Part shown: positions 6,526 to 37,085 of the stretch, piece by piece
How positions within the stretch are numbered: position 1 is the first letter of the stretch
Layout: every line of letters begins with the position of its first letter
NCBI GenBank assembly: GCA_050253075.1
Contig: JBFWJS010000003.1
Coordinates: 21,358 to 85,357, forward strand
DNA length: 64,000 nucleotides
Source of the DNA: Deferribacterales bacterium
Lineage (GTDB): Bacteria > Chrysiogenota > Deferribacteres > Deferribacterales > Geovibrionaceae
Reading direction: 5' to 3'
Translations under genes and position numbers: made by a program
Notes under the pieces: generated by a model
What the model was told of the DNA's origin: nothing
Database searches by the model: none
Seen by the model: only the letters and a program-made list of their open reading frames with translations

Positions 6526-6772
6526 GATATTTACACACAGTATTAATATTAATTAGTCTAAAATATACTGATCGTATAAATCCGTGTTGGTTATTTAAAA
6601 ATAAAAAAATTATGTTAGAATGACTGTGAGTTATAATATTTTAATCTCAAAGATAAAATGCTAACTTAATTTGATATTGGCATTATGTTTATTTCGAGTT
6701 GAAATTGAATATATGTTTGCAGCTATTTGATTTTGTATACTTTAATGTTTTTTGATAAGGAGAGATAGTCTC

Positions 6773-9448
6773 ATGTTAAATCTAAGACTTAGAGAAGAAT
6801 TCCGCAGCAAGAAGCTCAAAGGTACCATGGTTGATTTTACAAATAGACAAGGTACTGGGGCATTAGATATAAGTGCATCTGAATTTTTAAACATAACATA
6901 TCCATCTGTGGATCTATTAAAGACAATTGAAGCTTTGCAGCCAAATAAAGCTCGTCCAGTTGTAATTATTGGTTCAAGAGGACAAGGTAAGTCTCATTTG
7001 ATGGCTGCGATAGCTCATATGTTTAAAGATCATAGTGCTACTGAAAAATGGTTAAAGTCATGGGCGAACCTGCTCCATAGAGATGACTTTTCAGAGTTAA
7101 CTTTAAATCGCAATGTTGAGGTCATAACAGAAAGCTTACATCAGCATAATTATACTTTTCTATGGGATCTTCTCTTTGACAAACACCCAGAAGGTAACTT
7201 CATTAGAGGTAAATGGGAGGGACAAGGAGAAAATAAATCCGAAGTACCAGGAACCGCTCTCTTATTAGAAATGTTTCAGAAGAAGCCTACGGTACTTATT
7301 CTTGACGAATTTCAAACATGGTATGAGGGACTAACTAACAATAAGCAATACCCTCGTAGAAATTGGGCTTTTAATTTTATACAGATTCTCTCAGAAATAG
7401 CAGAACAATATCCAGAGCTTCTTACTATTGTGTTGTCCGTTAGAGAAGGGGACTCTGATGCCGCACAGCAAGTTTATAGGATTAACCATGTTAGGATAGA
7501 TTTTAAAGGGCCAGAAGCAAAACGTGACCGGCAAAAGCTATTGCTCTATAGAATATTCGAAAACCGTATGCAAATTCCAGAGCCTGATATAGAAAATTTA
7601 ATCTCCATACACCTTAGTGAATACTACCGTCTATACCATATACATGGATCAGAGAAGGATCGCTTAAAGAATGAATTCATCCAAAGCTGGCCTTTTTCTC
7701 CTATATTGATGAAATTACTTGATGATCAGGTTCTTATTGCTACACAAACACAAGAAACCAGAGACTTACTCCGTATTCTCGTGAATATTTTTAAAGATGC
7801 TGGAGAAAACAACCCTATTTTAACTGCTGCAGATTTCTCAATCACAGAAGAGAAAAGTGGTGTTACTGCACTATTAGACTCTGTAGCGAATAAACTCCAT
7901 CGAGACCTCCGTTCTAAAGCTCTTAGAAATTATGAAGCTGTTAAAGAAGTTGTAGATGGTTCTCTCCAGAAACAACCTCATCTTAGTATGATTTTAAGCT
8001 CTTTATGGCTTAGATCACTTTCGCTGGAAAATATTGCTGGTGCTCGGCCTGCTGAGATTCAACTAGATATTACAAAGGATAAAACTATAGATGATAACCT
8101 TTTTTCTGTAGAGCTGGAAACAATCAAAGAAAATAGCTTTAATATCCACCAAAAAGGGGATCGTCTTGTATTTCTAAACGAAGAAAACCCACAAGCAAAA
8201 CTTATAGCTCACGCTAAAAATGATAAACTCTTTGATGAAGGACAAGATATTGACTATTTGGCACAAGAAATCCGTTATGTATTGGGCGGTAGTGAGTCAA
8301 ACAGCTCTCAGGGTCGTGTTATTATTTTACGGAAAAATTGGCATGGTTCACCTTGGTCGGAAGTTGATGAAAAGGATCATCCAGCAAACTGGGATACAAG
8401 AATACCGTATGTTATAATCCCTAGAGGTGATGTTACGCAAAAAGATTTGGGTAATTGGCTTAAAAATCATATTTCAAAGTATAGGAATACAATACGTTTT
8501 ATTCTTGCAAAAAGTAGCTTAGACCCTGTTTTTTATGACAAAGCTCTGTTGGTTCTTGCAAGAGCAGTTTATCTGGCTAAAGAGTGGAAAGATGCTGATT
8601 CGAACTATTCATCCCTTTATAGTAAGTATCAAAGTGATCTCAGAGCGCAATTAAAAGTACGTTTTGATCGTTATGCTGTTCTTGATACTTGGAATTTTGG
8701 TCAACCTGATTTGTGTGAATTTGAAATAAATGCACACAAAGCTGAGGGGGATAAAATTATTCCAGCTATTCAGGAAAGAATCGAAAAAGACCTCTTTATT
8801 ATTGAAGATTTCGAGAAATTGGTGCTTGATTCTGCTAAAAGAAATGACTCTTTTGCTGTCTTGATAAATCAATTGAAGGAGCCCGCAGGTGGAGGACAAC
8901 CGTGCATCCCTTGGCTAGGTGAGATTAAAACAAAAGAGCACATAGTTAGACTATGCGCAAAAGGTAAGATTGAAATAAATCTTCGTGGCAGAGAATTATT
9001 AACTACTCTCCCTGGTGAATCTGAAGATACTGCATGGAATCGTATGAAAGGAAAAATTGGTGCCGGTAGAGAGCTGGAAGAAACTTCAATTCATGAGCCT
9101 GACAGCACTGTTACCTCTGGTGGTGGACAAGCAACAGCAGGGACTGCTAGCAATGGAGGTAATGATTCAGATTATATATCTAAAATACCAGAAGGCAGTA
9201 CTCCTATTCCTGGCGTACTTTTTGGAGGAACCTCGACTACATATGGGAAGAAGACTCCCTTTAGTGCGTATAGCTCATCATCTCTATCCATACTGGGTAA
9301 AATAGAAAGTTTCGGCATTACTCCAGGAGCTAAAGTATCTAATATCAGCCTATCGATAGACAACCTTACTGGAGCTCAGCTAAATGATTTAATAAAGAAA
9401 TTACCCGATGGGATATTATATAGCCTTAATCTTGAGAAGGAGGACTAA
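6773..9448 (+). CDS. DUF499-family AAA+ ATPase (defence-associated)
   Basis: Walker A GSRGQGKS, Walker B VLILDE, FIQSWPFSP and QETRDLLR motifs; AAGGAG upstream of the ATG at 6773. Confidence 0.8.
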   Translation: MLNLRLREEFRSKKLKGTMVDFTNRQGTGALDISASEFLNITYPSVDLLKTIEALQPNKARPVVIIGSRGQGKSHLMAAIAHMFKDHSATEKWLKSWANLLHRDDFSELTLNRNVEVITESLHQHNYTFLWDLLFDKHPEGNFIRGKWEGQGENKSEVPGTALLLEMFQKKPTVLILDEFQTWYEGLTNNKQYPRRNWAFNFIQILSEIAEQYPELLTIVLSVREGDSDAAQQVYRINHVRIDFKGPEAKRDRQKLLLYRIFENRMQIPEPDIENLISIHLSEYYRLYHIHGSEKDRLKNEFIQSWPFSPILMKLLDDQVLIATQTQETRDLLRILVNIFKDAGENNPILTAADFSITEEKSGVTALLDSVANKLHRDLRSKALRNYEAVKEVVDGSLQKQPHLSMILSSLWLRSLSLENIAGARPAEIQLDITKDKTIDDNLFSVELETIKENSFNIHQKGDRLVFLNEENPQAKLIAHAKNDKLFDEGQDIDYLAQEIRYVLGGSESNSSQGRVIILRKNWHGSPWSEVDEKDHPANWDTRIPYVIIPRGDVTQKDLGNWLKNHISKYRNTIRFILAKSSLDPVFYDKALLVLARAVYLAKEWKDADSNYSSLYSKYQSDLRAQLKVRFDRYAVLDTWNFGQPDLCEFEINAHKAEGDKIIPAIQERIEKDLFIIEDFEKLVLDSAKRNDSFAVLINQLKEPAGGGQPCIPWLGEIKTKEHIVRLCAKGKIEINLRGRELLTTLPGESEDTAWNRMKGKIGAGRELEETSIHEPDSTVTSGGGQATAGTASNGGNDSDYISKIPEGSTPIPGVLFGGTSTTYGKKTPFSAYSSSSLSILGKIESFGITPGAKVSNISLSIDNLTGAQLNDLIKKLPDGILYSLNLEKED

Positions 9449-10431
9449 TGGACCAGTCAATTCTCAATACAATAATGACGGCAGAGCCAGAAGAATGTTT
9501 ACAGTTGCTTTTGAAAGAAGTCTGGAAGATTTTTTCAACTCCAATAAACTCTGCGACAGCGGATGCTCTTACTGTTGAAAGGGATAAGAAAGCAGCCGTT
9601 TTAGATACATTAATTTGCGGTGCAGCTTGGGAATTATGGAATATAATACCTCACTCACAATTGAGAACATCATATCAATTATCAAAGTTCTGGCAGCATG
9701 AATCACAAGGGAAATCAGTATTGATTCTCGACGCTTTATCATTGAGAGAAGCATGTTGGATATTAGAACAGGCTGAAAATAGAGGATACTCTATTAATAG
9801 GAGCTTTGCATCTTTCTCTGAAATTCCAGGCGATACCACGCCTTTTGCTAAAGCACTCGGATATAGCCAACGTTCATCATTGGCTAACAATGGAGGGAAA
9901 AGCGACTTATTTCCTGGTGCATACACCGAGTCAGCTGATATTCCATTTGCAGACTGCTGTAGGTTGATCAAGCCTGAGACCGGTATTATTTTTTGGCACC
10001 ATTGGCCTGACAGTCTTATTCATGACCTTTCCGATGATGGCAGCGGTGCCCAAAAAATTACGAAAGCAGCAATTGAAACATTTTACTCTGATGATTTTTG
10101 GAAATTTATTGACATTCTTGCAACGGGAAGAAAACTCGTCATTACCGGAGATCATGGCTACGCTAATGCAGGATTGTTTAAAGATATCATAAACAAAGAA
10201 CAGATTGAGTACATGAAAAACCTCTTTAAAAGCGGTCGTTCAACGCAGACAAATTCTGATTATAACAATAACTGGGTACCACCTTTAGCAATGGATATTG
10301 GTGATAGTAAACTTGCTCTGGGTAGAAAAAAATGGAAAAGCCAGGGCGGCTATCCCACGCTAACGCATGGTGGGCTTTCTTTGTTAGAGATGGCAGTTCC
10401 TTTTATAGAAATAGAAAAGAAACAAGGATAA
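9448..10431 (+). CDS. PglZ-type alkaline-phosphatase-superfamily domain protein
   Basis: VLILDALSLRE, VITGDHGY and THGGLSLLEMAVP motifs typical of PglZ; TAATG coupling to the ATPase gene. Confidence 0.8.
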   Translation: MDQSILNTIMTAEPEECLQLLLKEVWKIFSTPINSATADALTVERDKKAAVLDTLICGAAWELWNIIPHSQLRTSYQLSKFWQHESQGKSVLILDALSLREACWILEQAENRGYSINRSFASFSEIPGDTTPFAKALGYSQRSSLANNGGKSDLFPGAYTESADIPFADCCRLIKPETGIIFWHHWPDSLIHDLSDDGSGAQKITKAAIETFYSDDFWKFIDILATGRKLVITGDHGYANAGLFKDIINKEQIEYMKNLFKSGRSTQTNSDYNNNWVPPLAMDIGDSKLALGRKKWKSQGGYPTLTHGGLSLLEMAVPFIEIEKKQG

Positions 10432-10436
10432 TAAAT

Positions 10437-13400
10437 ATGGCTGGCGCAAAACTTACAAAAGCAGAAGAAATAGAACAAATGGTGGCAGCGGCAGTGGATG
10501 CCGGAGAAGAACGCCATCTGGAAACCGTAGACTTTAATGACCCCAACAGACCAAAGACCTGTCTGGAGGTCGATTTTCCGATCCTGCCGATAAACTCTTT
10601 ATCAGCGATTGAAGCTGCTTCAGGTAGTACAAAGAAACCAATCTACAAAATGTCCAAATGGTGGGCTCGAAGACAATCATCTGTGTTTCGCTCTACCTTG
10701 ATTGCTGCCGCTGCGAAAGCACCGGACGATCAGGCCGAAGCGGCAAAGCTGGTTTGGGAAAACTACTACTGCAACCACCAGAAAAATGCTTCTTTTAATA
10801 ACCTGAAAGTAGCTGACATCTTTATGGGCGGCGGAACCACACTTGTTGAAGGTGCCCGCCTTGGCATGCAGATGTATGGCAATGACCTGAATCCGGTGGC
10901 GTGGCTGGTGGTCAAGAATGAACTGGCCAATGTGGATATCGAGGAGGTCAAACGGCTCTTTGCCTATATAGAATCCGAAGTGAAGCCCCAAATTATGCCC
11001 TTTTATGCCTGCGAAGGTCCCAACGGTGAAAAAGGCATCTGGTACAGTGTGGAAACTGGTAAGCCCATGCCGGAAGATTTTGATCCGCTGGCAGTGGCTC
11101 CTGAAGATCGCAAGAAATACCGCTATGAGGGCCCGGAAATTATCTACACCTTCTGGGCGAAACATGGACCGTGTAGTGCCCCTAGATGTAATCATCGGAC
11201 ACCACTTTTCAGCTCACCTGTCATTGCTGTGAAGGATCTGTCTGTAAAAACATGGCCAAATCAAAAATGTGATGATTGCCATAATTCTTTTGATATAGAA
11301 GCGGGCGAAGTACGCATGGCACCTGATGAGCTGTTAATAATTGCAGATGATAATGATATCTTTACAACTCTTGATTCTAAGGGCATATATTTTTGCCCCC
11401 ATTGTGGTAAAAAGCAAATGAAGAATCTTGAACATGTAAAAAGTAAGAATAAGAAAGTTTCTCTTTCCCTGTTGATTCATCCTGACTGGATGAAAGGTGC
11501 CCCCGGAAGCGATGACCAAGGCGAACTGGGCGGAACCGTAACCAGCACGGTTGAAGAAACCAAACGCTGGAATGAATTGCGCCAGAGCACCCTCAAGCTG
11601 ATTGAAGTGCGTGGAAAACTGCCGGACGAAATCACCTTGCCGGTTAGTGGCGAAGTGATGTCTACCAAAAATGGGACGATTCCAAAGAGGTCCACCTTTA
11701 CCTGTCAGGAAGAAACATGTGGTTTACAGCAGAATAGTATGGAAGCAATCAGAAAATCGTTAGGTTCTGCAGCCATCAGCCCTTACGCATTACATTGTTA
11801 CTCTCAGAAAAGAAAAGATTCCTCTGCAGCTTATAATGGTAGGTTTTCCAAAGGCATTTCAAAAAAAGATTTAAAAAGAGCAAACGCGGCATTAGTTGAG
11901 TGGAATAAGAGATCAATAGGGGACTTAAAAGATTACTTCCCAAAGAGTGAGTTACCATTTGGCGTAATGACACATTTAGCAAATGGCGATTTACCGAAGA
12001 ATTATGGCTATACACATTTTCATACAATGTTTAATTCGCGCCAATTACTAATGAATTCATTGCTTTTAAAAACCATTCATAAAGCTGATGGCTTTTCTGA
12101 AACAGTAAAAGAGATTGCATTTGGCGCGTTTCAATCATTTTTGAGAAATCAAAATATGTTCTGTATTTGGGATATTGGAGCTGACCAATTGACCCCCATG
12201 TTTAGTAACAATAATTATCACCCAAAAGCAACATGGATAGAAAATAACTTTGTGTCGCCAGTAGGAAGAGGTAATTGGAGCACTGCCGTAGACATTGCAA
12301 TCGAAGGTTCAAACTGGAAAAACAATACAACTGAATTAGTTCCAAAGACAATACTGGCATCCGATAATTATGAATTCGAAAAACTAGTTACAGGTAAAAG
12401 TGCCAAGGTATATATGCCTGACAGTGTATTACCAGGTACAAATGTCACCTGCGGATCGTCTACAGAATTGACCAGTCTCGAGTCTGGCTCCTACGACCTC
12501 GTCATAACCGATCCTCCATTCGGAGGGCTTTTGCACTACTCCGAGCTTGCCGACTTTTTCTATGTCTGGCTGCGTTTGGTACTGAAGGATAAGTATCCAG
12601 AGTATTTCTCAGGAGAATACACACCAAAAACTCTTGAGGCTGTAGCCAATAAAGCTAGAAACCCAAAAGATGCTGATGAATTTTATAAGCGTGTTCTCAC
12701 CGATTGCTGGCGGGAGGCTCATCGTATTCTTAAAGCTGGTGGCATTCTCGCATTTACATTTCATCATAGTGAGGATGAGCCATGGGTAGATGTTCTTGAA
12801 AGCCTCTTTAATTCTGGTTTCTTTCTTGAGGCAACATATCCTATCAGATCAGATGAGACAAAAGGTGATGGCGAATTCGGCTCAAAAACTATTGAATACG
12901 ATATAATACATGTTTGCCGTAAAAGGACTGCTGAGCCCTCTGAAATAAGCTGGGCGAAGCTGCGCAGACAGATATTACGAGATGTCCGTCAGCTGCAGGA
13001 TTTACTTGAGCACCATCAAAAGGCTGGTCTGCCTGATGCTGATATTGAAGTTATCAAAAGAGGCAAGGCTCTCGAATATTTTTCACGCCATTATGGCAAG
13101 GTTTATGTTGAAGAGGGTCGTGAGTTTACAATCAAAGAGGCATTAGCTGGGATCAATGAAATTATTCAAGATCAATCAAGTGAAAGCACTACGAAAGCTC
13201 CTGATAAGGCAGAACCTTTAACTCGTCAATTTCTACGGATTTTTGCAGATAGAAGTCAAATTGAACGTGATCAAATTCAAAAATACCTGAGAGGGTCAGG
13301 TGTTGGTCCGAGTGATTTTGTTTCCAAAGCTTGGTGTAGTGAAATAAACCGGCCTAAAGCATTTGTCTGGGCAGACCCACTTGAGTTTGCAAAAGATAAG

Positions 13401-13685
13401 AAATCACTCCGAAGTATTCACAGAGACTTTGATCAGGCGTTGTTCTTTGTTGGTGCCTGCTACTTAGACAGTGGTATTAACCTCAAAAAAGAGATGGAGA
13501 CTTCTGATTTTAGACCTCACCCCGCATTAGGTGACTTATTAGATTGGCTTGGAATACATGGTCCGTCTAATGATTTTAAAAATGCTACCTACACGGCAAA
13601 AAAACTTTTTAATAGCTGGTCAGAGAAGAATCAGATAATAGTTCAAAAACAACTATCAGTATACGATCTCTTAGAGGAGGAGTAA
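10437..13685 (+). CDS. DUF1156-family amino-DNA methyltransferase with Zn-ribbon inserts
   Basis: KWWARR, DIFMGGGTT (SAM-binding), ITDPPF (catalytic), several CxxC pairs. The ATG at 10437 follows the PglZ stop. Confidence 0.88.
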   Translation: MAGAKLTKAEEIEQMVAAAVDAGEERHLETVDFNDPNRPKTCLEVDFPILPINSLSAIEAASGSTKKPIYKMSKWWARRQSSVFRSTLIAAAAKAPDDQAEAAKLVWENYYCNHQKNASFNNLKVADIFMGGGTTLVEGARLGMQMYGNDLNPVAWLVVKNELANVDIEEVKRLFAYIESEVKPQIMPFYACEGPNGEKGIWYSVETGKPMPEDFDPLAVAPEDRKKYRYEGPEIIYTFWAKHGPCSAPRCNHRTPLFSSPVIAVKDLSVKTWPNQKCDDCHNSFDIEAGEVRMAPDELLIIADDNDIFTTLDSKGIYFCPHCGKKQMKNLEHVKSKNKKVSLSLLIHPDWMKGAPGSDDQGELGGTVTSTVEETKRWNELRQSTLKLIEVRGKLPDEITLPVSGEVMSTKNGTIPKRSTFTCQEETCGLQQNSMEAIRKSLGSAAISPYALHCYSQKRKDSSAAYNGRFSKGISKKDLKRANAALVEWNKRSIGDLKDYFPKSELPFGVMTHLANGDLPKNYGYTHFHTMFNSRQLLMNSLLLKTIHKADGFSETVKEIAFGAFQSFLRNQNMFCIWDIGADQLTPMFSNNNYHPKATWIENNFVSPVGRGNWSTAVDIAIEGSNWKNNTTELVPKTILASDNYEFEKLVTGKSAKVYMPDSVLPGTNVTCGSSTELTSLESGSYDLVITDPPFGGLLHYSELADFFYVWLRLVLKDKYPEYFSGEYTPKTLEAVANKARNPKDADEFYKRVLTDCWREAHRILKAGGILAFTFHHSEDEPWVDVLESLFNSGFFLEATYPIRSDETKGDGEFGSKTIEYDIIHVCRKRTAEPSEISWAKLRRQILRDVRQLQDLLEHHQKAGLPDADIEVIKRGKALEYFSRHYGKVYVEEGREFTIKEALAGINEIIQDQSSESTTKAPDKAEPLTRQFLRIFADRSQIERDQIQKYLRGSGVGPSDFVSKAWCSEINRPKAFVWADPLEFAKDKKSLRSIHRDFDQALFFVGACYLDSGINLKKEMETSDFRPHPALGDLLDWLGIHGPSNDFKNATYTAKKLFNSWSEKNQIIVQKQLSVYDLLEEE

Positions 13686-13686
13686 T

Positions 13687-14187
13687 ATGGACCCGATCCT
13701 GCGTGATAATATTTGGCAGCGGAAAGGGATTTCGATACTGTGGGATGATAGCACATTAGCTGATCTGATTAATGATAATCGTGTAATCTCACTGAGAGAG
13801 TTCTTTTCTTTCTATGCACAAAACTGGCCGGAAAATTCGATGCCTTTTATAAATGACGACTTGCTTTTGGTTGCAGGGCTCGATGCAGCTCTTGATACTC
13901 TTGAAGCCTCTGATGCAGAACATTGGGTGACACAAGAGGTATACAAGCGTATTTATGAGTTTCAAAACTGGGCAGAAGGACAGTATGCCCTCGTTTTCTG
14001 GATGAGCAGTAAGAATCGATGGAAAGAACACATAGATGAAGACAGATATACCTGGCTTTGCGACGGGAAAGACCGTGGCAAAGAAATTGAACTAGGTAGT
14101 GGAATATGGAATGGTGCACAACGCAGTGTCCAGCGAATTGAATCAGATAATCGCTGGATAGGCCTTTTCTTAGACAGGATTAGTTAA
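13687..14187 (+). CDS. Small hypothetical protein in the defence operon
   Basis: GAGGAG RBS; 1-2 nt gaps to both neighbours; LLLVAGLD resembles a degenerate Walker B strand. Confidence 0.75.
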   Translation: MDPILRDNIWQRKGISILWDDSTLADLINDNRVISLREFFSFYAQNWPENSMPFINDDLLLVAGLDAALDTLEASDAEHWVTQEVYKRIYEFQNWAEGQYALVFWMSSKNRWKEHIDEDRYTWLCDGKDRGKEIELGSGIWNGAQRSVQRIESDNRWIGLFLDRIS

Positions 14188-14189
14188 TA

Positions 14190-16925
14190 ATGCCTTACGA
14201 GATAATTCCTGGAATTAGGGTTAAACATAAAGATTTTGGTCAGGGAGCTGTTCTTTCAGTATCTGCAGGATTCGCAACGGTTTTCTTTTCTGTTGGAGAA
14301 AAACGAGTACCTTTTTCTGAATTAACACCTGCATTAAGTCGAAATGAAGAAATTGTTCTTAATATCAGCTCTGGCGCAGACCGGCAAAAAAAAGCCTGGT
14401 TGTGTTATAAGGCACATGAGCTGCCGCTCCTTGAAAATGCAACATCTATGACGGCTGCTAGAATTGACCTGTTGCCTCATCAGGTAGTTATTACGCATAA
14501 AATAGCTGTTGCTGGTCCGAGAAGGTTTCTGATTGCTGATGAAGTTGGATTGGGTAAAACTATAGAAACTGCCCTAATCTTAAGAGAACTGGCAAGCAGA
14601 GGAGAGCTTAACAGAGCATTGATGATTGTTCCTGCTGGCCTTGTAAACAATTGGCATAGAGAGCTCAACGAGGTATTTAATCTCAATTTTGAAGTCTTTG
14701 GAAGTGAGGGTGACGTCAGTGATAGAAAGACTAATGCTTTTGCAAAACACAATTTATTAATTGCAAGTATAGACACCCTAAAAAGACCGGAACGGATAAA
14801 AAAACTTTTAGACGCACCTAAATGGGATCTTGTTGTTTTTGACGAAGCACATCATTGCACCGCTTATAAGCAAGGCGGTAAAACCAAGAAAACTCAAAAC
14901 TATAAACTTGCCGAAACAATAAGAGATCATACTAGAGATTTAATTCTCCTTTCAGCAACACCACACCAAGGCGATCATTACAGGTTCTGGAAATTAATTC
15001 AGTTGTTAGACCCTGCATTATTTAAGAATGAATCAGAAATGGTCGAGGAACGTCATCGATTGAATCCCTATGTCTTCAGACGTACAAAAGCTGATGCTTG
15101 CCGACCAGATGGTTCTACTCTTTTTGCTAGACGTTGGGTTCATACTGAGGCGTTTACAATGTCACATGAAGAAAGATCATTCTACCTGGCACTGAATGAA
15201 TATCTCAGAGACGGATTTGCATTGGCCAAAAAACAAGGTAGCAAAGGGAGAGCTCTTGGCTTTGTTATGACCATCTTTCAAAAAATTGCAGCATCAAGCT
15301 TTGCCGCAGTGCACAGAACGCTTCGTCGGCGTTTAATTGCGCTTACTGTTCATGAAGGATTAATTCATGACGAAAACCTTGATATTGATCTTAGAGATGA
15401 TGCTTTTAGGATCGCAAAGGAATATATTAGACTTGAATTTCAGCTTAGCAATGACCAAATGAGCAATCTAGAAGCTGAACGTATTCTCAATGAATTAAAA
15501 CGCAAACAATTAAAAAAGATTAATGAAGAAGAATTACAGATGGCATCAGATACATTTGCTGATGAGCTGACGACACAATCGGCAGAAGATGCTGTCATGA
15601 ACGCAGTAGCCTTTGCATTGCCTGAAGAGCGAGAGCGTATTACAGAATTACTCGCACAGTTTCCTAATATTCAGGAGACAAAAGTCGAAAAACTTATTTC
15701 TGCTCTTGGAATTTTATGGGCTCAAAATCCAGAGGAACGTGTAGTCATATTTGCAACATACCTTGGTACAGTAGAGATGTTAGGGAAAGAAATCAATCAT
15801 TCTTACCCAGGTCAAGGCGTAGTTGTCCTAAAAGGTGGAGATCACGGCAGTAAAGCCGCCGCCGAAAAAAGGTTTAAACAACCAAATGGCCCACGTGTAA
15901 TGATTTGTACAGCAGCTGGACGAGAAGGTATTAACCTTCAGCATGCCAGAGTACTTTTTAACTTTGATCTCCCTTGGAATCCTATGGATATGGAACAGCG
16001 CATTGGTCGTATACATAGATATGGTCAAAAGGACACAGCTCAGGTTTATAATTTAGTTCTAGGTGACACTATAGAAGGGAAAATATATTTACTGCTTGAT
16101 GACAAACTCAAAGAAATAGCTTCAGCCCTTGGAAAAGTTGATAGTAACGGCAATATTGCTGAAGATTTACGATCTCAGATATTAGGACAGCTTCAAGAAA
16201 CCATTAACTATCAAAAATTATATTCTGAAGCTCTCAATGATCCCTCTTTGAAAAGGACACAGCTTGAATTAAGTGCAGCAATGACAAACGCCTCTGAAGC
16301 TAGAAATGCGGTATCTGAACTATTCCAAGACCTTGATCAGTTTAGCTTGGATGAGTACCAACCTCTATCTGATATCGATACGAGTATGCAACAATTAATA
16401 TCCTTTGCCGAAATGTCAGCTTATTTAGAAAAATGTAAATTTGAAAAGAATGACAACATTCACATTTTTACTGATATTAACGGAGACAAAATTCGTTTTA
16501 CGACTAATAGAGATGTAGCCTTAGAAGACGACAGCTTAGAAATTCTTGGGTTAGATCACCCCATTATAGAAAAATGGTTACTAAAATATCGTAATATATC
16601 CACAGAGCAAATTGCTTGTGTAGTGGTTGGAAATAACCTACATAAAGGAATTCTTTCGATTTGGGAAATTGAGACACATAATTCGAAAGGACATATTGTA
16701 AGATCAATTATTAAAATTGGTATGGACCATTCCGGAGACAGGAATGTTTCTATCGAAAAGAATATAGATGATGTATTTTTTTATTCAAGCAATGAAGCTA
16801 TTAAGCCTAATAATTTTCTGCCATTAGCTGAAACTCTTCTTGAAAGAGAAATGAAGCATAGATTTAGAACTAACAGCGATTATGCATATAGTGCAAAACT
16901 AATTGGCTGGATAGAAATTGTTTGA
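14190..16925 (+). CDS. SNF2/RapA-family helicase-like ATPase
   Basis: LIADEVGLGKT, DEAH, SATPHQG, GREGINLQ, PWNPMDMEQRIGRIHRYGQ. Confidence 0.93.
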   Translation: MPYEIIPGIRVKHKDFGQGAVLSVSAGFATVFFSVGEKRVPFSELTPALSRNEEIVLNISSGADRQKKAWLCYKAHELPLLENATSMTAARIDLLPHQVVITHKIAVAGPRRFLIADEVGLGKTIETALILRELASRGELNRALMIVPAGLVNNWHRELNEVFNLNFEVFGSEGDVSDRKTNAFAKHNLLIASIDTLKRPERIKKLLDAPKWDLVVFDEAHHCTAYKQGGKTKKTQNYKLAETIRDHTRDLILLSATPHQGDHYRFWKLIQLLDPALFKNESEMVEERHRLNPYVFRRTKADACRPDGSTLFARRWVHTEAFTMSHEERSFYLALNEYLRDGFALAKKQGSKGRALGFVMTIFQKIAASSFAAVHRTLRRRLIALTVHEGLIHDENLDIDLRDDAFRIAKEYIRLEFQLSNDQMSNLEAERILNELKRKQLKKINEEELQMASDTFADELTTQSAEDAVMNAVAFALPEERERITELLAQFPNIQETKVEKLISALGILWAQNPEERVVIFATYLGTVEMLGKEINHSYPGQGVVVLKGGDHGSKAAAEKRFKQPNGPRVMICTAAGREGINLQHARVLFNFDLPWNPMDMEQRIGRIHRYGQKDTAQVYNLVLGDTIEGKIYLLLDDKLKEIASALGKVDSNGNIAEDLRSQILGQLQETINYQKLYSEALNDPSLKRTQLELSAAMTNASEARNAVSELFQDLDQFSLDEYQPLSDIDTSMQQLISFAEMSAYLEKCKFEKNDNIHIFTDINGDKIRFTTNRDVALEDDSLEILGLDHPIIEKWLLKYRNISTEQIACVVVGNNLHKGILSIWEIETHNSKGHIVRSIIKIGMDHSGDRNVSIEKNIDDVFFYSSNEAIKPNNFLPLAETLLEREMKHRFRTNSDYAYSAKLIGWIEIV

Positions 16926-16963: not shown

Positions 16964-16992
16964 AAAAAGCCCCGTCAGAATGACAGGGCTTT
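16964..16992 (-). terminator. Intrinsic terminator between convergent operons
   Basis: AAAGCCC.GTCA-gaa-TGAC.GGGCTTT stem with A/T tracts on both sides. Confidence 0.7.
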
Positions 16993-17023: not shown

Positions 17024-17443
17024 CTAGTCTTCATTTGGGAACATTATGGTGATGACGGGGCTATCGTCGTCGCCAGGGCCGATTACAGAAACCAGCTCGT
17101 GCAGACGCTGGGTGCCGCTGTCGTGTTTTCCGTCAATATCCCGAACGCTCACTTTGAAGCGGACACCGGCGGCCTGCTTGTTCCTTTCGGCTGCCATCCG
17201 CATGCAGAATAAAATATCCCACAAGCGGCCGGTAATATCATCCAACCCTTCATACTCTTCCGGCAGTGCAACACAGCTGTCGTAAACAGCCCTCGTCAGC
17301 GCAACCGGAATCTTGAACCCTGCCTGTCTGACAAGCGTCACATGCTCGCCTTCTGGTGTATAGTCTGTTACGTCCACAAGAACGCCATCAGCGATAGCAT
17401 CCGAGCGGGTATATGAGAAGACAATGTCATCTTTACCAAACAT
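17024..17443 (-). CDS. DUF6573-like mobile-element protein
   Basis: SYTRSDAIADGVLVDVT...AGFKIPVALTRAV...GRLWDIL...ITIMFPNED; GGAGG RBS before the ATG at 17443. Confidence 0.7.
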   Translation of the reverse strand: MFGKDDIVFSYTRSDAIADGVLVDVTDYTPEGEHVTLVRQAGFKIPVALTRAVYDSCVALPEEYEGLDDITGRLWDILFCMRMAAERNKQAAGVRFKVSVRDIDGKHDSGTQRLHELVSVIGPGDDDSPVITIMFPNED

Positions 17444-17804
17444 ATCTGCTCCTCCCGCAAAGCGTTGTGTGAGAGATTTGCTCAGTCTCGTAACAGCTTT
17501 TAATGTCATCCAGATAAGAGCTGAAAGTTACGCCGTATTTGTCTACAAATATCTGCTCATATTCAGAGCGATACCTGCGGCCTGAATTATCAAGGTAAGT
17601 AATGTCAGGAATGAACCATGAAAGATTAAGCTCACCAAAAAGCTGACCTGATTCTGTGATAGTCCTTAATGCCTGCTTAATCTGCCGAATGTTATTTTCA
17701 GTCAGGTTCACAAACGCTTTGACAGTTACGCCTTTGAATAATTCCGGATCGGTCAGAACAGTAAGGATTAGAGTTTTGATGATCGGTTGTTTGTCTGAGC
17801 TCAT
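17433..17804 (-). CDS. Hypothetical protein, paralogue of 17801-18178
   Basis: Overlaps both neighbours; aligns by eye with the next ORF. Confidence 0.7.
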   Translation of the reverse strand: MSSDKQPIIKTLILTVLTDPELFKGVTVKAFVNLTENNIRQIKQALRTITESGQLFGELNLSWFIPDITYLDNSGRRYRSEYEQIFVDKYGVTFSSYLDDIKSCYETEQISHTTLCGRSRYVW

Positions 17805-18178
17805 GACAGCCCCCTTACGAGATTGTCAGCGGACTCGTCATCCGTAAAGAGCTCTTTGTGCGTTATGTCCATAGTCTCAAAGCTGACGTTGCAGCCAGAT
17901 AAGTATGAGTAGAATGACACCCCATGCTTATCAACACAGACATGATCACCTTCAGAACTGCATTCCTCGCCTTCGTTATCGAAATAAGTGAGATTGGCTC
18001 CAAACCATACTAGCGTGAGGCCGATAAATTCGGAACCGGAATTTTCGATAATGTCACGAGCTTTGCGGATAAGTTCCAGATGTCCATTTGTTAGGCTGAC
18101 GATAGCTTTGACAGGAGCTTCCATCCATAAATCATGCTCGGTCTCTACTGAGAGCTCGAAAGTTTTAGCATTATCCAT
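17801..18178 (-). CDS. Hypothetical acidic protein, paralogue of 17433-17804
   Basis: AAGGAGG RBS; ATGA overlap with the downstream paralogue. Confidence 0.72.
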   Translation of the reverse strand: MDNAKTFELSVETEHDLWMEAPVKAIVSLTNGHLELIRKARDIIENSGSEFIGLTLVWFGANLTYFDNEGEECSSEGDHVCVDKHGVSFYSYLSGCNVSFETMDITHKELFTDDESADNLVRGLS

Positions 18179-18188
18179 GACAGCCTCC

Positions 18189-19013
18189 TTATGACGCTAT
18201 CAGGTCTTTGCTGGCTTCCAGCTCAACCGATTCTATGATCTCTTTGGAAACCTTGTACGCCACGTCCACAGACTCCATGATCTGGTCGATGTCGCCTTTG
18301 CCCCATCCGAAGAGGTAGCCAAAGGAATATTCGCCGGAATCGATGCCAAAGTGTTCCGCCACGATAAAGGCCGTCATTTCAGCCTCGATCTCTTTAACGC
18401 TTTTCAGCTTTTCTTCGTTGCCGACATGGTTAAGGACGCAGTGAGCAACCTCATGGATGAGGGTTTTCAGTTTCTGCTCTTCGCTTTTGACCTCGTTGAG
18501 AACAATAGCGCAGCCGTCGGTATAGCCTCCCAGCGGTGCAGTGAGCTTCTGCTGGGATATGCTGTAGGTTCTGCCGAACACACTCATAAAGCGTTCAAAG
18601 AGCTCTGTGTGCCCTCCGAAGTCATTTACGAGCGACGGCACCTTATCCCCATCAGTCTGGCTGATGTCGAATACAGGGACAGATACAAAGCCTGACAGGC
18701 GTTCCTGCTGAACGTCAACCTCCAGACCGGTTTCCTCGTCAATTTCTTTGGATTTGTTTTTCCTGAAGCGTGGCGCAAATATCATAATCGCTTTTTCGCC
18801 TTTGCGGACAAACCTTCCGAGCTCATTCCACTTCCGCATTCCGGCAACGTGCGTTGCGTATGGGTTATGCTGATAGATGAGCAGTGTATTGACGAAAGAA
18901 TAGTTTCGGAGCTTGGCCAGAAAGGAGAGATAGTCCTGCAGCATGCCGCTGTTGACGATGTTTTCTATCCCGTCCCTGATCATTTCCCTGAGTTCCATTT
19001 TGTTCTTAAACAT
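18189..19013 (-). CDS. ArdC-like ssDNA-binding domain plus HExxH metallopeptidase domain (anti-restriction/establishment protein)
   Basis: NYSFVNTLLI...VAGMRKWNELGRFVRKGEKA...VFDISQT; TLIHEVAH; EIEAE; GGAGG RBS before 19013. Confidence 0.8.
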   Translation of the reverse strand: MFKNKMELREMIRDGIENIVNSGMLQDYLSFLAKLRNYSFVNTLLIYQHNPYATHVAGMRKWNELGRFVRKGEKAIMIFAPRFRKNKSKEIDEETGLEVDVQQERLSGFVSVPVFDISQTDGDKVPSLVNDFGGHTELFERFMSVFGRTYSISQQKLTAPLGGYTDGCAIVLNEVKSEEQKLKTLIHEVAHCVLNHVGNEEKLKSVKEIEAEMTAFIVAEHFGIDSGEYSFGYLFGWGKGDIDQIMESVDVAYKVSKEIIESVELEASKDLIAS

Positions 19014-19090
19014 TGTGTGCCTCCACATGGTTTTGTGACGGGGCACACTGATATCCCTTGACGGGGTAGAGTGTCCCCGTCTGGGTGTTT
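19011..19090 (-). promoter_or_regulatory. Structured 5' leader with alternative pairings covering the RBS (copy 1)
   Basis: GACGGGG can pair with either of two CCCCGUC copies; GUGUGCC can pair with GGCACAC overlapping the RBS. Confidence 0.6.
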
Positions 19091-19182
19091 TTCATCGTAA
19101 ACTCGTTAACGTTTATAGCGTCGTTATGTTTTCTACGCCGATACAGTTAACAAAGTCACTAACTTTGAAACAATTTGATGTC

Positions 19183-19752
19183 TTAAGCGGTCTTTTGCAT
19201 TTCGCTGGCAGGCAGTATCTCGTTGAGATATCTTTTGCCGTTTTCGCTGGTGTAAACAACAGCGTTTACAGTCTGCTGCACGTCGAGAAGTACAGTGTTT
19301 TTTGTCCTCTGTGTGATGACAAAAGGTTCCTGAAACCCTGCAAACATAATTCCGTTGCCGTCTTTTTTGATAATGACAAGGTTTTCCATAGTGGAAATAT
19401 TTCTGTCCGGTTTCGGCGGCGATGAAGATGTCTGGGCGGATTCGGTCTGCTGAGAGTTTTCAGCATTTGCGGAAACTGGCTGTACCTGATGATCGTGCAC
19501 GATTATTCTGAGATATCCTCTGGAGTCTGATTCAACAAGGCTGTTGTCTTTAACATCAAACCTTCTTGTGGTCAGTCTGCCTGAAATGGATATGAAGTCT
19601 CCGGACTGCGCACTGATTTCAGTGAAAGAGATCAGATAGGCTGCGCTGGAGTCTCCGAATATTTCGATACACAGAGCTGAAGCCGTTTTGCCTTGATAAG
19701 ACACGCTTTGACATGATTTTACGATACCTGTGAGATTAACCTGATTAAACAT
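19183..19752 (-). CDS. Divergent SSB-like OB-fold protein with an extra C-terminal domain
   Basis: MFNQVNLTG...GDFISISGRLTTRRFD resembles SSB; AAGGAGG RBS before the ATG at 19752. Confidence 0.6.
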   Translation of the reverse strand: MFNQVNLTGIVKSCQSVSYQGKTASALCIEIFGDSSAAYLISFTEISAQSGDFISISGRLTTRRFDVKDNSLVESDSRGYLRIIVHDHQVQPVSANAENSQQTESAQTSSSPPKPDRNISTMENLVIIKKDGNGIMFAGFQEPFVITQRTKNTVLLDVQQTVNAVVYTSENGKRYLNEILPASEMQKTA

Positions 19753-19843
19753 AATAGCCTCCTTAGTGTTATGATTTTGAAACCATACAAAGGCATATTT
19801 ATGTCCCTGTGCAGGGTTTAAATATGCCCCTGCATTGGGTAGG
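19750..19843 (-). promoter_or_regulatory. Structured 5' leader with alternative pairings covering the RBS (copy 2)
   Basis: 17-bp helix (19819-19835 with 19785-19801, three G-U pairs) competes with a 7-bp local hairpin and with an anti-RBS pairing. Confidence 0.6.
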
Positions 19844-20322
19844 TTAATTCGATACAAGAGAAACAAATGATCGGTGGTGTTCCGACTTGTCCGCTATTAG
19901 CGGATCATCCAAAAGGATGTAGAAATGTATATATGCTAGTTAGATTATACTTTTATATCAAGATAGATTGTTTCAATCAAAGTCAAATTAATAGTAAAAA
20001 AGAGTGTTTTATTATAAAATTATATTGTTAATAATTATTTTATAGCTAATTATTAATCGTGAATGTTGCCCTTATTGATAACAGTGTTGTTAGAAGACAC
20101 AGAATGCAATAAAGCAGTTAATCGCATATATTGTCTTGGTAATGGCCTGATTTGAAAACACTTTGTAATATTTTTGAGCTTAGAATGTATTTGCGAGTAA
20201 GTTTTCGAAAATTATAATGTTTTCAAGTGGCAAGCTAGTGACAACCGACTCACATTATGGCATTATTTTTAGTATTATATGTCTCAGTATGTAATAATAT
20301 ATAAAAACAATGAGAAAAAATC

Positions 20323-23300
20323 ATGCAAAACGATAATGTTAATCAAATAGACCAGCTTCTTAACTCTAGAATTCCAATAATGCTATTTATTGGCAAAGAA
20401 CCTAAAGATATTGACCCCTCCATATTAGCCCTACCTTGGAGTTGTGTTGTAACAACCTCTGTGGACGTTAGTTTGCAGTATTGTTTTGAGATAAAAGATA
20501 AGAGACGACCTATCGTAATAACAAACAGCCACGATATGCTTGGCTCTGCTAAACTAAATCAACGAGAATTAAACATTGTATACTTATACGGCGAAGAAGA
20601 TCAAAGTAACTTGTCTGCAATAAACAAACAACGCAAAAAAAATAATGCACTTGATATGTTAAAAATTATTCCAGATATGCTGAATAGTGCTTTTGGGGCT
20701 CTTTTTGTAATAAACTATAACCCAGACTACAAAGATGAAATTCAGTTTGAAAACTTAATAGACACTGTAGATAGTATCAAAAATAAACCAGTTTACTTTT
20801 TTGGTATAAGTCAGCAATTAGCGAACAATCAATTATTTAATGAAATGCAGGCAGAAAATTGTATAGTAGGGGACACAGGAGAACTGCAAGATTTAGTAGA
20901 ATTAACAGATGAACAAGATGATTTATTAGAAGAAGGTGAACTGTTAGATGATGATAAAGTTTATTATTATTCAAATGGGAAAAGGCACAGTATTACTACA
21001 GGGGAACTTTTTGAGACCAAGAGTTTTGCCAAATTACTTAATGAAACTGAAATAGGGATAATAAATTTTCCAAACCACTTAAGAAACGATTATTTCTATC
21101 ACTTTCTTAAAGAAAGTGCAAAAAGGCCTATTTGGTTTGGATATGAAAATCACTTTAACCTCGTCAGGGATTATGAAAGAAAACTAAATGATTTGGTCTA
21201 TGCCTCACTTAACTCTAAAGAAATTAAGCAAAAACCTATTCTTGTCTTAGGGCAAACTAGTAGTAGTAAAAGTATCGTATTATCTAACCTAGCATATACT
21301 TTATTCAAAGCGCATGATCATCCTGTAGTATTTATTAACAATAAAGACATTAGTTTTGATATTAACAGCTCAAATTTTAATGCTCTTGATAGCTTGCTAT
21401 ATAAAATTGAAGAACACGGTGCAACTAGAGTTGTTTTAATTTGGGACAATTCTTCTTCGTCAGTGAACGAAATCACAGCTACAGAAAAACTATATACAGG
21501 CCTCATAAACAGAGGCCGGAAGGTTGTCTTGATTAGCTCCGCTTATCAACAAATAAACATTTATCGTAACAAAATTGATAAGTTTTTCAAGGTTATTAAT
21601 GCTGAAATAAAATTATCGAAAGAAGAAAAAGAGAGATTAAGTGAACTTGTATTAAGTAACAGCCGGGTACCACAAGACGTGTTCCAGAGATGGATACAAT
21701 CTGAACATGAAGACAACTTGCTTACTTTACTTTATTCACTATTAATGGAATATACGGGTAGTGGGATTATTCAAGGGGTCAAAAATGAGATTGACAAAGG
21801 CATGTCGAGTTTGCTTAATGCTCTTAGTAAGCTACCAAAGCAGGCTGAACGTAATAAAACGTCTATACTCGCTCAGGCTTTTGCAGATGCTGGTTATAAA
21901 CTAAAAGGACATTCTGGAGGAGCACCAAGTACTATTGATATCGAAACAATAGAACATTCTCTGAGAGAGTTTTGCAAAATTGTTGCTATAAGTTATCAAC
22001 ATAATATCATGTTACCTGTCTATCTCGTTGTCAAGTGTTCAGGCTTGGACATTGACAGTAATTTCTATCTAATTCAAGAGACACTTTTTAGCATCCCATT
22101 CTTAAAAGTTATAACGAGAGAAGAAGATAGTTCTGATTTTGACTACGCTATTGGGTTCAGGACGCCTTTAGAGGCAAATCTATACTTAAAAAGCATTGAA
22201 ACTACTCCTGAACAAGAAATAGCTTGTATTACAAATCTAATCCTCAATATTTCTCATTCTAATCAATACAGTAAATTCTCTGAGGTTTCATCTATAGATA
22301 AATTAATTCGCACTATTGGCCCTAATACAATTAAGCCTGAAGTAAGAACAAGGTATCGTAGCTACTATTATAAAGTAATTGATGCTCTTCAAGAATTAAG
22401 AGCTCAATCAAAAATATTTGACCCAAAATTAATATGTCAAGAAGTCACTTGGGTTAGAGAAGTTTATGGTAATCAGATTGAACAAGAATTTGAATACGAA
22501 CTCCGAGTAAACAAATTACAAGAAGCATCAGTTTTGGCTAATAAAACATTATCAAATCTTGAGTCGCCGAATATTACTTACCACGAACTGATAACAAGAC
22601 ATAACCTGATAGTAGAAACAGCCTTTATAGAGTGGAAACTATATGAGCTTGTTAAACAAAACACTTCATCAAGCAGTGACAGTAGTTCGCAAATAACTTT
22701 CAACTATGATGAACTACTTAATTCATTAAAAGAAGTTATATATAATGACCCTACCAACAGCTATCCAGCAAATGCACTACTTAAATTATTTAAAGCATTG
22801 TATTTGAATAATAACATTAATACGCAAAATAAACTTAAATACCTAGACGAAATTTTAACTATAATTAACAATATCGACAATGCTACAGATGAGGCATTTA
22901 TAGATAACGAAGAGTATCTTGAGCACAAAAGCCACGTTATTGAATATTTAAGCTCTAAAAAGTATGAAAAATACCTAGATGAGCTTATTGCTGCCGCCCC
23001 GTCTGTAGGATTACATCTTAAAGCAAGGAAATTAATAGTAAATGCTAACATTGATGTTAAAAAGCCGCTAGACAATAATCAAATTCTTGTTGCACATGAA
23101 ATTATTACAATGCTTAACAAGAATGAAGAATCTGTATCAAAGCATGAAGGCTGTCTTCTTTTAAAATTAAATTTACTTTGGCTAATATATAATGATTCTC
23201 CAATTTTTACTGGTAAAGAAAAGCAGTTTACACAAATGAATCTGGAACATTGGAAAGATATTAATAAAATATGCAGACAGTATGAAGAGCACATCTTAAA

Positions 23301-23694
23301 AAGTGGAAAAAACCAGGTTAACTCTCCATTTATGTACTATCTGCTTGGCTTATCTTATGCCCAGATTGAAGACTACCCAAGCAGCAATGAAGCTTTCAAA
23401 AAGATTAAGGAGTCATTATTTTTTCGGCAAGTTAGAAATAAGGTCTGGCACATCATTTGTGACGAAAATGGTGTGCCTAAAAAATTTCGTGGTTCGTTAA
23501 GCGAAAATTACTACGATAGCTCTACCAGAAAAGGCTTTGCAAAGCTTGAAGCAATTCATACGAGTAAAGGTGGCGTCTTTTTTTATGGCCCGAATATGAA
23601 AACTGCAAAATATAGTGGCAGTTTTTCTGATATTGAAGTTGGTACAAGCTACATAGGTTTTGAGGCATTCAGAAAGTTGGAAGAGAACAAGTAG
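20323..23694 (+). CDS. Large multidomain protein: Sir2-like N-terminus, STAND-like P-loop NTPase, helical repeats, C-terminal OB-like domain (Avs-like)
   Basis: LPWSCVVTTSVD (cf. Sir2 TTNYD); ILVLGQTSSSKS (variant Walker A); VVLIWD (Walker B); long helical C-terminal half; AT-rich cargo gene. Confidence 0.62.
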   Translation: MQNDNVNQIDQLLNSRIPIMLFIGKEPKDIDPSILALPWSCVVTTSVDVSLQYCFEIKDKRRPIVITNSHDMLGSAKLNQRELNIVYLYGEEDQSNLSAINKQRKKNNALDMLKIIPDMLNSAFGALFVINYNPDYKDEIQFENLIDTVDSIKNKPVYFFGISQQLANNQLFNEMQAENCIVGDTGELQDLVELTDEQDDLLEEGELLDDDKVYYYSNGKRHSITTGELFETKSFAKLLNETEIGIINFPNHLRNDYFYHFLKESAKRPIWFGYENHFNLVRDYERKLNDLVYASLNSKEIKQKPILVLGQTSSSKSIVLSNLAYTLFKAHDHPVVFINNKDISFDINSSNFNALDSLLYKIEEHGATRVVLIWDNSSSSVNEITATEKLYTGLINRGRKVVLISSAYQQINIYRNKIDKFFKVINAEIKLSKEEKERLSELVLSNSRVPQDVFQRWIQSEHEDNLLTLLYSLLMEYTGSGIIQGVKNEIDKGMSSLLNALSKLPKQAERNKTSILAQAFADAGYKLKGHSGGAPSTIDIETIEHSLREFCKIVAISYQHNIMLPVYLVVKCSGLDIDSNFYLIQETLFSIPFLKVITREEDSSDFDYAIGFRTPLEANLYLKSIETTPEQEIACITNLILNISHSNQYSKFSEVSSIDKLIRTIGPNTIKPEVRTRYRSYYYKVIDALQELRAQSKIFDPKLICQEVTWVREVYGNQIEQEFEYELRVNKLQEASVLANKTLSNLESPNITYHELITRHNLIVETAFIEWKLYELVKQNTSSSSDSSSQITFNYDELLNSLKEVIYNDPTNSYPANALLKLFKALYLNNNINTQNKLKYLDEILTIINNIDNATDEAFIDNEEYLEHKSHVIEYLSSKKYEKYLDELIAAAPSVGLHLKARKLIVNANIDVKKPLDNNQILVAHEIITMLNKNEESVSKHEGCLLLKLNLLWLIYNDSPIFTGKEKQFTQMNLEHWKDINKICRQYEEHILKSGKNQVNSPFMYYLLGLSYAQIEDYPSSNEAFKKIKESLFFRQVRNKVWHIICDENGVPKKFRGSLSENYYDSSTRKGFAKLEAIHTSKGGVFFYGPNMKTAKYSGSFSDIEVGTSYIGFEAFRKLEENK

Positions 23695-23695
23695 G

Positions 23696-24586
23696 ATGGA
23701 TAAAGCAATAATTAGCAGAGCTAAAAACTCAATAGCTTTTAACTTAAACAAAATTGATTCATTGAATAAGTCCGTTGCTAAACTTGATGCAAGATTGTAT
23801 GCATTCGCATACTATGAGCCTATAGCTATTTCTGAATGCGGTAACTATAGGTTTAATTTTAATATCGCAATACTTAATCTTCATGCTTTATTATGGGACT
23901 GTGGCACTATGGTTAGAGATAAAATATTAAATAAATATTATAAACTGCGTCCCACATCTTTAATAAAAATAACTTCTCCATTTATTGATGACATTGATAG
24001 ATATTATAGTGTAATCCATAATATTCGAACACATTTATGTCACAATAACAGTCAAGAATATTATTATAATAAGCAGTGTTACAGCATGGTAAAAAACTAT
24101 TACTTATCAAAGTGTAACAATGCGACCCCCGATATTGCTAACTCATCTGATGACTGGAAGTTGTTGTTTAATGATATTATTGACATTGCTGAATACATTG
24201 AAACTAAAATGAGTGAAACCATAAGAAAGTTTACGTTACTACCTCCTGTAGACAAATCTGAAGTGATTAATTTTTGGCTTAATAGCATTAAAGAGTATTA
24301 TGCAAATGACAGTGAAATGATATTAGATACGCTTACTTACAAGTATCTAATATCTCCTTCTTTCATACAAACGGCACCGGTAACTAAAAATTCAGTAAAA
24401 AAATGGGTAGGCCTCAAATGGAACAGCTTAACTAATCGTCGTATACCTTATAGAGACTCTTACAATGATTATATTCAAGTGTGTAAAACTAGAATCGGCA
24501 CGGCATTGAATAATACTAACTGCCCAAGACCAGCCTTGCCTTTAGATATTTATCATGCAGTTACTTCAGAAGCGGATCATTTCTAA
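23696..24586 (+). CDS. Hypothetical protein with HEPN-like Rx4H motif
   Basis: IHNIRTHLCHN in a predicted helical context; ATG 1 nt after the upstream stop. Confidence 0.55.
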   Translation: MDKAIISRAKNSIAFNLNKIDSLNKSVAKLDARLYAFAYYEPIAISECGNYRFNFNIAILNLHALLWDCGTMVRDKILNKYYKLRPTSLIKITSPFIDDIDRYYSVIHNIRTHLCHNNSQEYYYNKQCYSMVKNYYLSKCNNATPDIANSSDDWKLLFNDIIDIAEYIETKMSETIRKFTLLPPVDKSEVINFWLNSIKEYYANDSEMILDTLTYKYLISPSFIQTAPVTKNSVKKWVGLKWNSLTNRRIPYRDSYNDYIQVCKTRIGTALNNTNCPRPALPLDIYHAVTSEADHF

Positions 24587-37019: not shown

Positions 37020-37085
37020 CAGCAGTTCTCTTGTTTTTTCGTTTTTTAATCACGTCAGTTTTTTCGCCTTTGTTTTTTATGTTTT

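Follow-up and report, generated by a model that had tools for sequence, protein, structure and literature searches.

In SXT/R391 ICEs and IncA/C plasmids the bet gene is highly transcribed, while its expression is hindered by a translational attenuator (Garriss, 2013, as summarised in PMC4542580), and an RBS-sequestering structure has been reported at vcrx089 in the portion of the IncC study drawn on here (PMC7498323). The same portion states that the genes of this IncC operon must undergo de novo expression in the recipient (PMC7498323). The leaders considered in the present study are 65–100 nt long, are repeated in the mRNA before host-entry genes and are predicted to keep translation off by default. 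Six segments can be distinguished, namely CCC, A (a look-alike of the SD region), B, GGG, C (an anti-SD) and the SD itself; in the predicted OFF state CCC pairs with GGG, A with B and C with the SD, and in the predicted ON state A pairs with C and B with GGG, so that the SD is free. A model derived from Deferribacterales and Geobacter-type leaders, of which the two copies treated below are training members, hits directly before the bet and exo starts of pRA1. Furthermore, six of the seven leaders in an IncC block pass the three-helix test (see below). The bet leader of IncC is made up of these segments too; its A:C fold and hairpin 1 differ by no more than 1 kcal/mol, and the SD is hidden in the ground state. 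The leader family very probably includes the SXT bet attenuator, and Garriss and colleagues are said to have noted, in 2013, further similar stem-loops in the bet operon. By contrast, the summaries in print describe the SXT/IncC attenuators as single OFF structures, without an ON helix, a latch, 2–28 copies or an occurrence in four phyla.

The ribosome-driven translational attenuators of ermC and cat consist of two exclusive hairpin sets, are OFF by default and turn ON when a 5′ segment is covered, a logic that the present leaders are predicted to share. Unlike ermC and cat, the leaders are not preceded by a conserved leader peptide (a short ORF before one copy, copy 2, is not conserved between the genome analysed here, G000, and the related G020), have six segments instead of four and are found in many copies per operon. 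In pLS20-family plasmids, too, establishment genes (ardC among them) are preceded by structured leaders that recur in several copies, named EGeRS1; in the sections of that study used here they measure 420–750 bp, share 62–95% identity among copies, occur once per operon and block read-through (PMC8708921). By contrast, no such long repeats of that identity before operons are formed by the present leaders, which are 65–100 nt, divergent (mean column identity 55%), each assigned to a single gene and directed against its SD. The Frpo/ssi ssDNA promoters are likewise repeated before ssb and anti-defence genes, but are presented in the text consulted as DNA hairpins that rebuild −35/−10 boxes and not as anti-SD/anti-anti-SD RNA (PMC11541004). 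The Rfam motifs radC, STAXI and c4-a1b1 are structured and lie near DNA-handling or anti-restriction genes of mobile elements, while the printed examples differ from the present leaders in length and layout (PMC2864571). An Rfam search of the window and nine other leader-rich loci, a check already proposed in the first-pass annotation of this DNA, gave no match at the gathering threshold, with hits at chance level only. The relevant parts of three further reports concern devices other than this leader (PMC6294495; PMC4344509; PMC5737381), and a literature search that covered Garriss (2013) through its summary in PMC4542580, and PMC7498323 through passages of its main text, returned no account of a multi-copy family or of the ON fold.

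Two leader copies in the window

The window, that is, the whole stretch of 64,000 nt analysed here (positions 21,358 to 85,357 of contig JBFWJS010000003.1, Deferribacterales bacterium), carries two leader copies on the minus strand. Copy 1 (19011–19089) lies before an ardC-like gene and reads CCC, A, B, GGG, C, a spacer hairpin, the SD and the ATG, with ACCCA at 19082–19086, A at 19070–19081, B at 19060–19066, AGGGA at 19054–19058, C at 19037–19049, GGAGG at 19020–19024 and the start codon at 19011–19013. Copy 2 (19750–19843) lies before the first gene of the operon and has ACCCA at 19836–19840, A at 19819–19835, B at 19810–19816, AGGGA at 19804–19808, C at 19785–19801, GGAGG at 19758–19762 and the ATG at 19750–19752. 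All segments that the first-pass annotation had named for two leaders with this order at the RBS are thus present at these minus-strand sites. To copy 1, itself a training member with model scores of 67.7 bits and 61.6 bits, the roles of latch (CCC), SD mimic (A) and anti-SD (C) were assigned. A descriptor combining sequence and fold of the leader layout matches twice in the 3.04-Mb genome, at the two window leaders only.

Computed folding bears out the off state of the annotation, since the minimum-energy RNA fold of each copy combines A:B with C on the RBS, with stabilities of z = −4.2 (copy 1) and −3.6 (copy 2) relative to 200 shuffles. When the RBS is held open, the best fold of both copies becomes A:C with an inner B:GGG helix. 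The three helices named in the annotation therefore stand, but the set was incomplete, as it lacked the B:GGG helix of the ON fold and the pairing of ACCCA with AGGGA (CCC:GGG), which in the OFF fold extends the A:B hairpin (hairpin 1). The A:C fold of copy 1 is calculated at −25.2 kcal/mol against −34.6 kcal/mol for the ground state, a gap of 9.4, and that of copy 2 at −28.0 against −31.4 kcal/mol, a gap of 3.4; in copy 2 the two arms of A:C, 17 nt each, show 82% complementarity, consistent with three G-U pairs. From 20 to 45 °C OFF is computed to lie below ON throughout, and switching by temperature was set aside. The window leaders are accordingly modelled with an OFF ground state (CCC:GGG, A:B and C:RBS) and with A:C as a less stable ON fold.

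The operon and its carrier element

Both leaders belong to a five-gene operon on the minus strand, which spans the distance from a promoter-like site (19933–19961) to a terminator-like hairpin (16966–16992, minus strand, z −4.9) that would act as an intrinsic terminator. The promoter candidate (TTGATA-17-TAGCAT) is sigma-70-like by its consensus match alone (9/12). Just 3′ of it, at the 5′ end of the operon, lies a conserved three-hairpin element (19870–19919, minus strand), a candidate RNA signal, operator or oriT, whose third hairpin is followed by a U-rich run. The three-hairpin pattern was found in four of the 65 genomes of the class, which are the four that carry the window-type element (further copies at L010, L014:15121-15175 and L019:1525-1580), and it is one of just two well-conserved non-coding stretches that the transfer region has in common with G032. 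Its pairs are formed in 57 of 60 cells, two pairs with compensatory change, in an alignment of four sequences only. The element may serve as an attenuator, as an operator or as oriT; by eye it was not visible 5′ of the first leader in ten other elements, and is thus no general part of the switch.

The first gene (19183–19752, minus strand) encodes 189 aa with a possible OB fold. Its previous label, ssb-like, is a lead only, as the protein has no Pfam match, matches the NCBIfam SSB family at E 0.03 and has an SSB-like predicted fold with a TM of 0.45 by query and 0.62 by target. The label of the second gene (18189–19013, minus strand, 274 aa) as ardC-like was upheld by matches to ArdcN (E 8e-10) and Peptidase_M78. 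Between the first gene and copy 1, positions 19095–19175 hold a 73-nt insertion relative to G020 with small palindromes. The two overlapping ORFs that follow (17433–18178, minus strand; 125 and 123 aa) have no assigned family and no switch leaders, and a DUF6573 gene (17024–17509, minus strand) comes last in the operon, in G000 as in G020, G032 and G033. Where an operon gene lacks a switch leader, it overlaps the upstream stop or lies directly against it. At one of these junctions the SD is clearly covered by a hairpin, a simple structure spanning the stop of ardC and the SD that follows (18175–18204, minus strand, z −3.0), which is predicted to be of the ordinary translational-coupling type. 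Relative to G000 and G020, the operon with its 5′ element (17024–20031) is inverted with respect to the transfer genes in G032 and G033 (L014, L018/L019).

The operon sits within an integrated element between defence-type cargo genes (6752–16925 and 20323–24586, both plus strand), which include DUF499, PglZ-like, DUF1156 methylase and SNF2 helicase genes and a low-GC pair of STAND-NTPase-like genes. The element has F-type transfer genes (TraN, TraH, TraC and TraE) as well as genes for a coupling protein and for an HD-domain protein, together with an actin-like partition gene and one for a NusA-like protein. Its probable relaxase is the HD-domain protein, which is fused to a YdjM membrane domain (32332–33987, minus strand). 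No MOBH profile match was obtained for the element, and tblastn with the HD protein reaches seven plasmids, all untyped; PLSDB lists related plasmids as “non-mobilizable”. A search for an integrase in the vicinity of the element gave none, the nearest integrase match on the contig lying at 357 kb, and an ORF at C3:1920 considered as a candidate was rejected in the absence of an integrase match. At L219:4959-6394 an actin-like partition gene with a small partner lies on an integrated element that has no integrase nearby. The NusA-like gene (36154–36834) is kept in four elements, and an A-rich conserved stretch (37031–37087) lies upstream of its operon segment.

The leader family and its predicted ON helix

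Related elements in G020, G032 and G033 carry two, three and five leaders, respectively, with differing stems and the same layout, so that the four closest elements, including that of the window, provide a set of 12. ArdC was considered as the anchor gene of the leader and rejected, since several ardC genes have no leader match. ArdC matches were found in six of the 65 genomes of the class; a single-protein ArdC scan of genome contigs gave none, and an alignment search gave four genome loci and three metagenome loci, one of the latter with a G033-type leader. No model match was seen at the ardC genes of G021 and G049 or in any of the nine ArdC-bearing phage contigs searched, and other phage contigs, preselected by a leader-like pattern, have one or two hits each and are left out of the evidence.

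A first model (R1) was built from the 12 leaders with the OFF pairs only, without A:C pairs. At E 0.1 or better it matches 17 of the 65 class genomes, 11 with two to eight hits that are nearly all clustered on one strand and six with single weak hits, and also four of the five plasmids found through the HD protein, where the matches stand immediately ahead of ssb, radC, DUF932, DUF3150, primase and other genes of this sort. A second model (R2), built from 72 hits, matches pRA1 (IncA) 20 times, R27 seven times, a Campylobacter plasmid eight times, pVb677 28 times, pCAR1 11 times and four Geobacter-, Pelobacter- and Desulfosarcina-type plasmids 4–13 times each, counts that include a few opposite-strand shadows and rest, as do those of R1, on rough E-values. 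F, R64, R751, pMU3262 and pHRV44 have no R2 match, and neither do a MOBP plasmid from Xanthomonas and a bet plasmid from Acinetobacter. The leader is present on four of four MOBH-typed plasmids, none of four MOBF/MOBP-typed plasmids and five of six untyped plasmids with an HD homologue. On MOBH-like conjugative elements from four phyla the leaders thus form clusters of 2–28 copies, placed ahead of ssb, ardC, radC, bet and exo-type genes; the related plasmids with the leader include drug-resistance plasmids. Individual copies vary: on R27 (L209) A and C track non-standard SD regions gene by gene, on the Campylobacter plasmid (L210) several leaders retain the 3′ half only, and at L109:9139-9260 and L110:8086-8204 a large structured insert lies between C and the SD while the outer pairings are the same. 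As judged by comparative sequence analysis, the leader is a real, covarying RNA leader family.

For the four closest elements, with their 12 leaders, pairing of A with C is nearly complete over 11 columns and involves several types of pair; A resembles the SD region of its own gene and C is the complement of that region. OFF (A:B and C:SD) is the best fold in 11 of the 12, the exception being the G033 ardC leader, whose best fold has A:C instead of A:B, and the ON fold reaches −22.9 to −28.0 kcal/mol in spite of the differing stems. Orthologous copies show compensatory changes at the ends of A:C. Among the R1 hits on the operon strand 97 were tested, of which 93 have a usable start codon and 88 are distinct; in an unforced three-helix test 62 of these 88 pass and 26 fail, whereas shuffling of the leaders gives 24 passes in 880 and genes of the own genomes, with four window lengths allowed for each, give 91 in 1779. 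The covariation that the first-pass annotation had seen within one element thus extends across dozens of copies, and the pairings are kept in homologues. For the 68 leaders that pass a forced three-helix test the own A:C duplex has a mean of −18.3 kcal/mol, against −13.6 for swaps within the element and −11.0 across elements, and in 62 leaders four loop bases of hairpin 1 pair with C in a fixed register in 186 of 248 cells, where within-element permutations give 122 ± 10 and none of 2000 reaches 186; since these subsets were chosen for having A:C and their kin are not independent, both figures overstate the effect.

These data bear on whether only hairpin 1 and C:SD matter, for stability and low translation, with A:C as a by-product of the resemblance of A to the SD. 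SXT/IncC copies are summarised in print in this way, as far as the summaries go (PMC4542580; PMC7498323). In addition, the A-loop columns covary by identity with columns 3′ of the SD in 125 aligned leaders, and for those C bases that OFF leaves unpaired, pairing with the A loop is seen in no more than 29 of 48 cells, so that part of A:C could follow from this resemblance. Mutual information in the same alignment ranks pairs of C:SD, A:B and CCC:GGG at the top, with weaker signals between the A loop and C. However, such a static dampener gives A no reason to match the SD-spacer of each individual gene unless it pairs with C, and it fits poorly with loop:C pairing above every within-element permutation and with the compensatory changes in orthologues, so that we consider it improbable. 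The ON fold is probably functional, and confidence is high that the leader is an RNA attenuator with OFF as its default.

The annotation had left open whether the element acts as a cis-regulatory RNA switch or as ssDNA. The downstream genes are of the leading-region type and either DNA strand folds (−19.4 and −19.2; −12.6 and −13.9 kcal/mol), as would suit an ssDNA structure or an Frpo/ssi-type promoter on the transferred strand, but the match of C to the SD is relevant in mRNA only. A U in C forms a wobble with a G of segment A and a regular pair with an A of the SD (G-U in 6 of 12 leaders at one column), which favours RNA on the coding strand, and with such G-U pairs the fold is stronger on that strand in 52 of 68 leaders. 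Furthermore, the consensus of 125 leaders has no conserved −35/−10 boxes, the best −10 hexamer of copy 1 matches at four of six positions, and the model matches nothing on F or R64, which carry promoters of the Frpo/ssi type. The ssDNA reading is therefore very improbable, while a two-state RNA leader over the RBS is supported.

A proposed latch and its possible trigger

A distinction between the two states would be made during transcription. Hairpin 1 probably folds first, and its outer CCC:GGG helix would act as a latch, raising the barrier and holding the loop toehold beyond the reach of C, so that the SD captures C. For the 68 leaders that pass the forced test the median barriers are 19 kcal/mol from hairpin 1 to ON, 18 from ON to OFF and 3.9 from hairpin 1 to OFF, all of them upper bounds computed without pseudoknots. 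While the latch is closed, a linker of 2 nt (median) is all that leads to the partner of the toehold, against a 12-bp stem to cross; this linker is as long as the stem in none of 61 leaders, compared with 20 of 61 when the outer stem is open. If 3 or 9 nt are masked, counted from the first C, the barrier into ON falls to 12 or 3 kcal/mol, and 63 or 62 of the 68 leaders, respectively, retain A:C as their best fold; at equilibrium, however, a mask of 3 nt exposes the SD in no more than 22 of the 68. Since the leaders used were admitted by the forced test and kin among them are not independent, the barrier, linker and masking figures lean towards the model. From the high barrier into ON, the short linker and the effect of masking we infer a bistable switch, OFF by default and ON if the latch is covered, and the asymmetry of the barriers suggests that formation of ON requires the 5′ CCC to be masked while the leader is being transcribed. 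In this scheme a cover on the A-rich linker and the CCC at that moment would let GGG take B and A take C, and ON would then last. We lean slightly towards this explanation as a whole, whereas masking of the latch as the trigger is, taken by itself, evenly balanced between right and wrong.

The same kinetics weigh on a self-acting timer, in which A:C would form by itself during transcription, allow one burst of translation and relax to OFF without any trigger. Prefix folding of both window copies does follow the order hairpin 1, A:C, OFF, and a loop toehold of at least 3 nt is available in 61 of 68 leaders, but the barrier into ON of about 19 kcal/mol compares with 3.9 for the direct route to OFF, and the toehold appears to be out of reach while CCC:GGG is closed, which makes a trigger-free course quite unlikely.

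For latch masking, the cover itself has to be considered. It could be the ribosome that ends the upstream gene, so that the translation of each gene would license the next in the manner of dominoes. The stop of an ORF of at least 50 codons lies at most 12 nt before CCC in 45 of 124 leaders and at most 20 nt in 69, in several leaders TAA directly abuts CCC, and a universal host machine would account for conservation across four phyla. On the other hand, for 55 of the 124 leaders such a stop is absent or over 20 nt away, a short SD-led ORF ends nearby in few, and short distances may reflect compact packing only. Since the upstream stop is 97 nt away from copy 1 (in the G020 orthologue, 24 nt) and no gene lies upstream of copy 2, which precedes the first gene, an upstream ribosome is not the masker in the window, though it may be in the 45 leaders with a close stop; as a general account, this relay seems unlikely.

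The masker of the window copies would most likely be a trans-acting single-strand binder, a protein or an RNA, present in a new recipient or after induction, which is the most tentative step of the scheme; for the window element such a binder is the best remaining guess. A non-systematic look for a candidate trans factor common to all elements found none. The NusA paralogue, to which the first-pass annotation had pointed, has no homologue at E 0.01 in 72,556 plasmids, although many plasmids carry the leader, and is thus not a general trigger. Binding of CsrA to AGGGA was considered and dropped, as GGG pairs in both folds and varies across the family.

The novelty assumed in the annotation is reduced by these comparisons, because single copies are already in print as the SXT/IncC bet attenuator and the copies before IncA/C bet and exo match its position. 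New are the reach of the family into Deferribacterales, Geobacter-type and Campylobacter elements, the covariation evidence for the ON helix and the latch model. The family bears on how IncA/C, IncHI and SXT-like elements silence ssb, bet, exo and anti-restriction genes in the donor and yet use them on entry, a tension visible in the portions of the two IncC and SXT sources cited, where genes required de novo in the recipient (PMC7498323) are held down in translation (PMC4542580). The defined ON fold and the latch make this question accessible to reporters and probing, for which the window copies, stemming from an environmental lineage that is harmless, are well suited; they also point to a possible target for blocking plasmid establishment and provide a marker for anti-defence genes in elements without ssDNA promoters. 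Tentatively, MOBH-type elements of at least four phyla may time their anti-defence genes with RNA toehold-like switches, such that one signal masking a three-base latch flips tens of divergent leaders into a long-lived ON state. If true, zygotic induction would have a route at the level of RNA, separate from both ssDNA promoters and repressor dilution.
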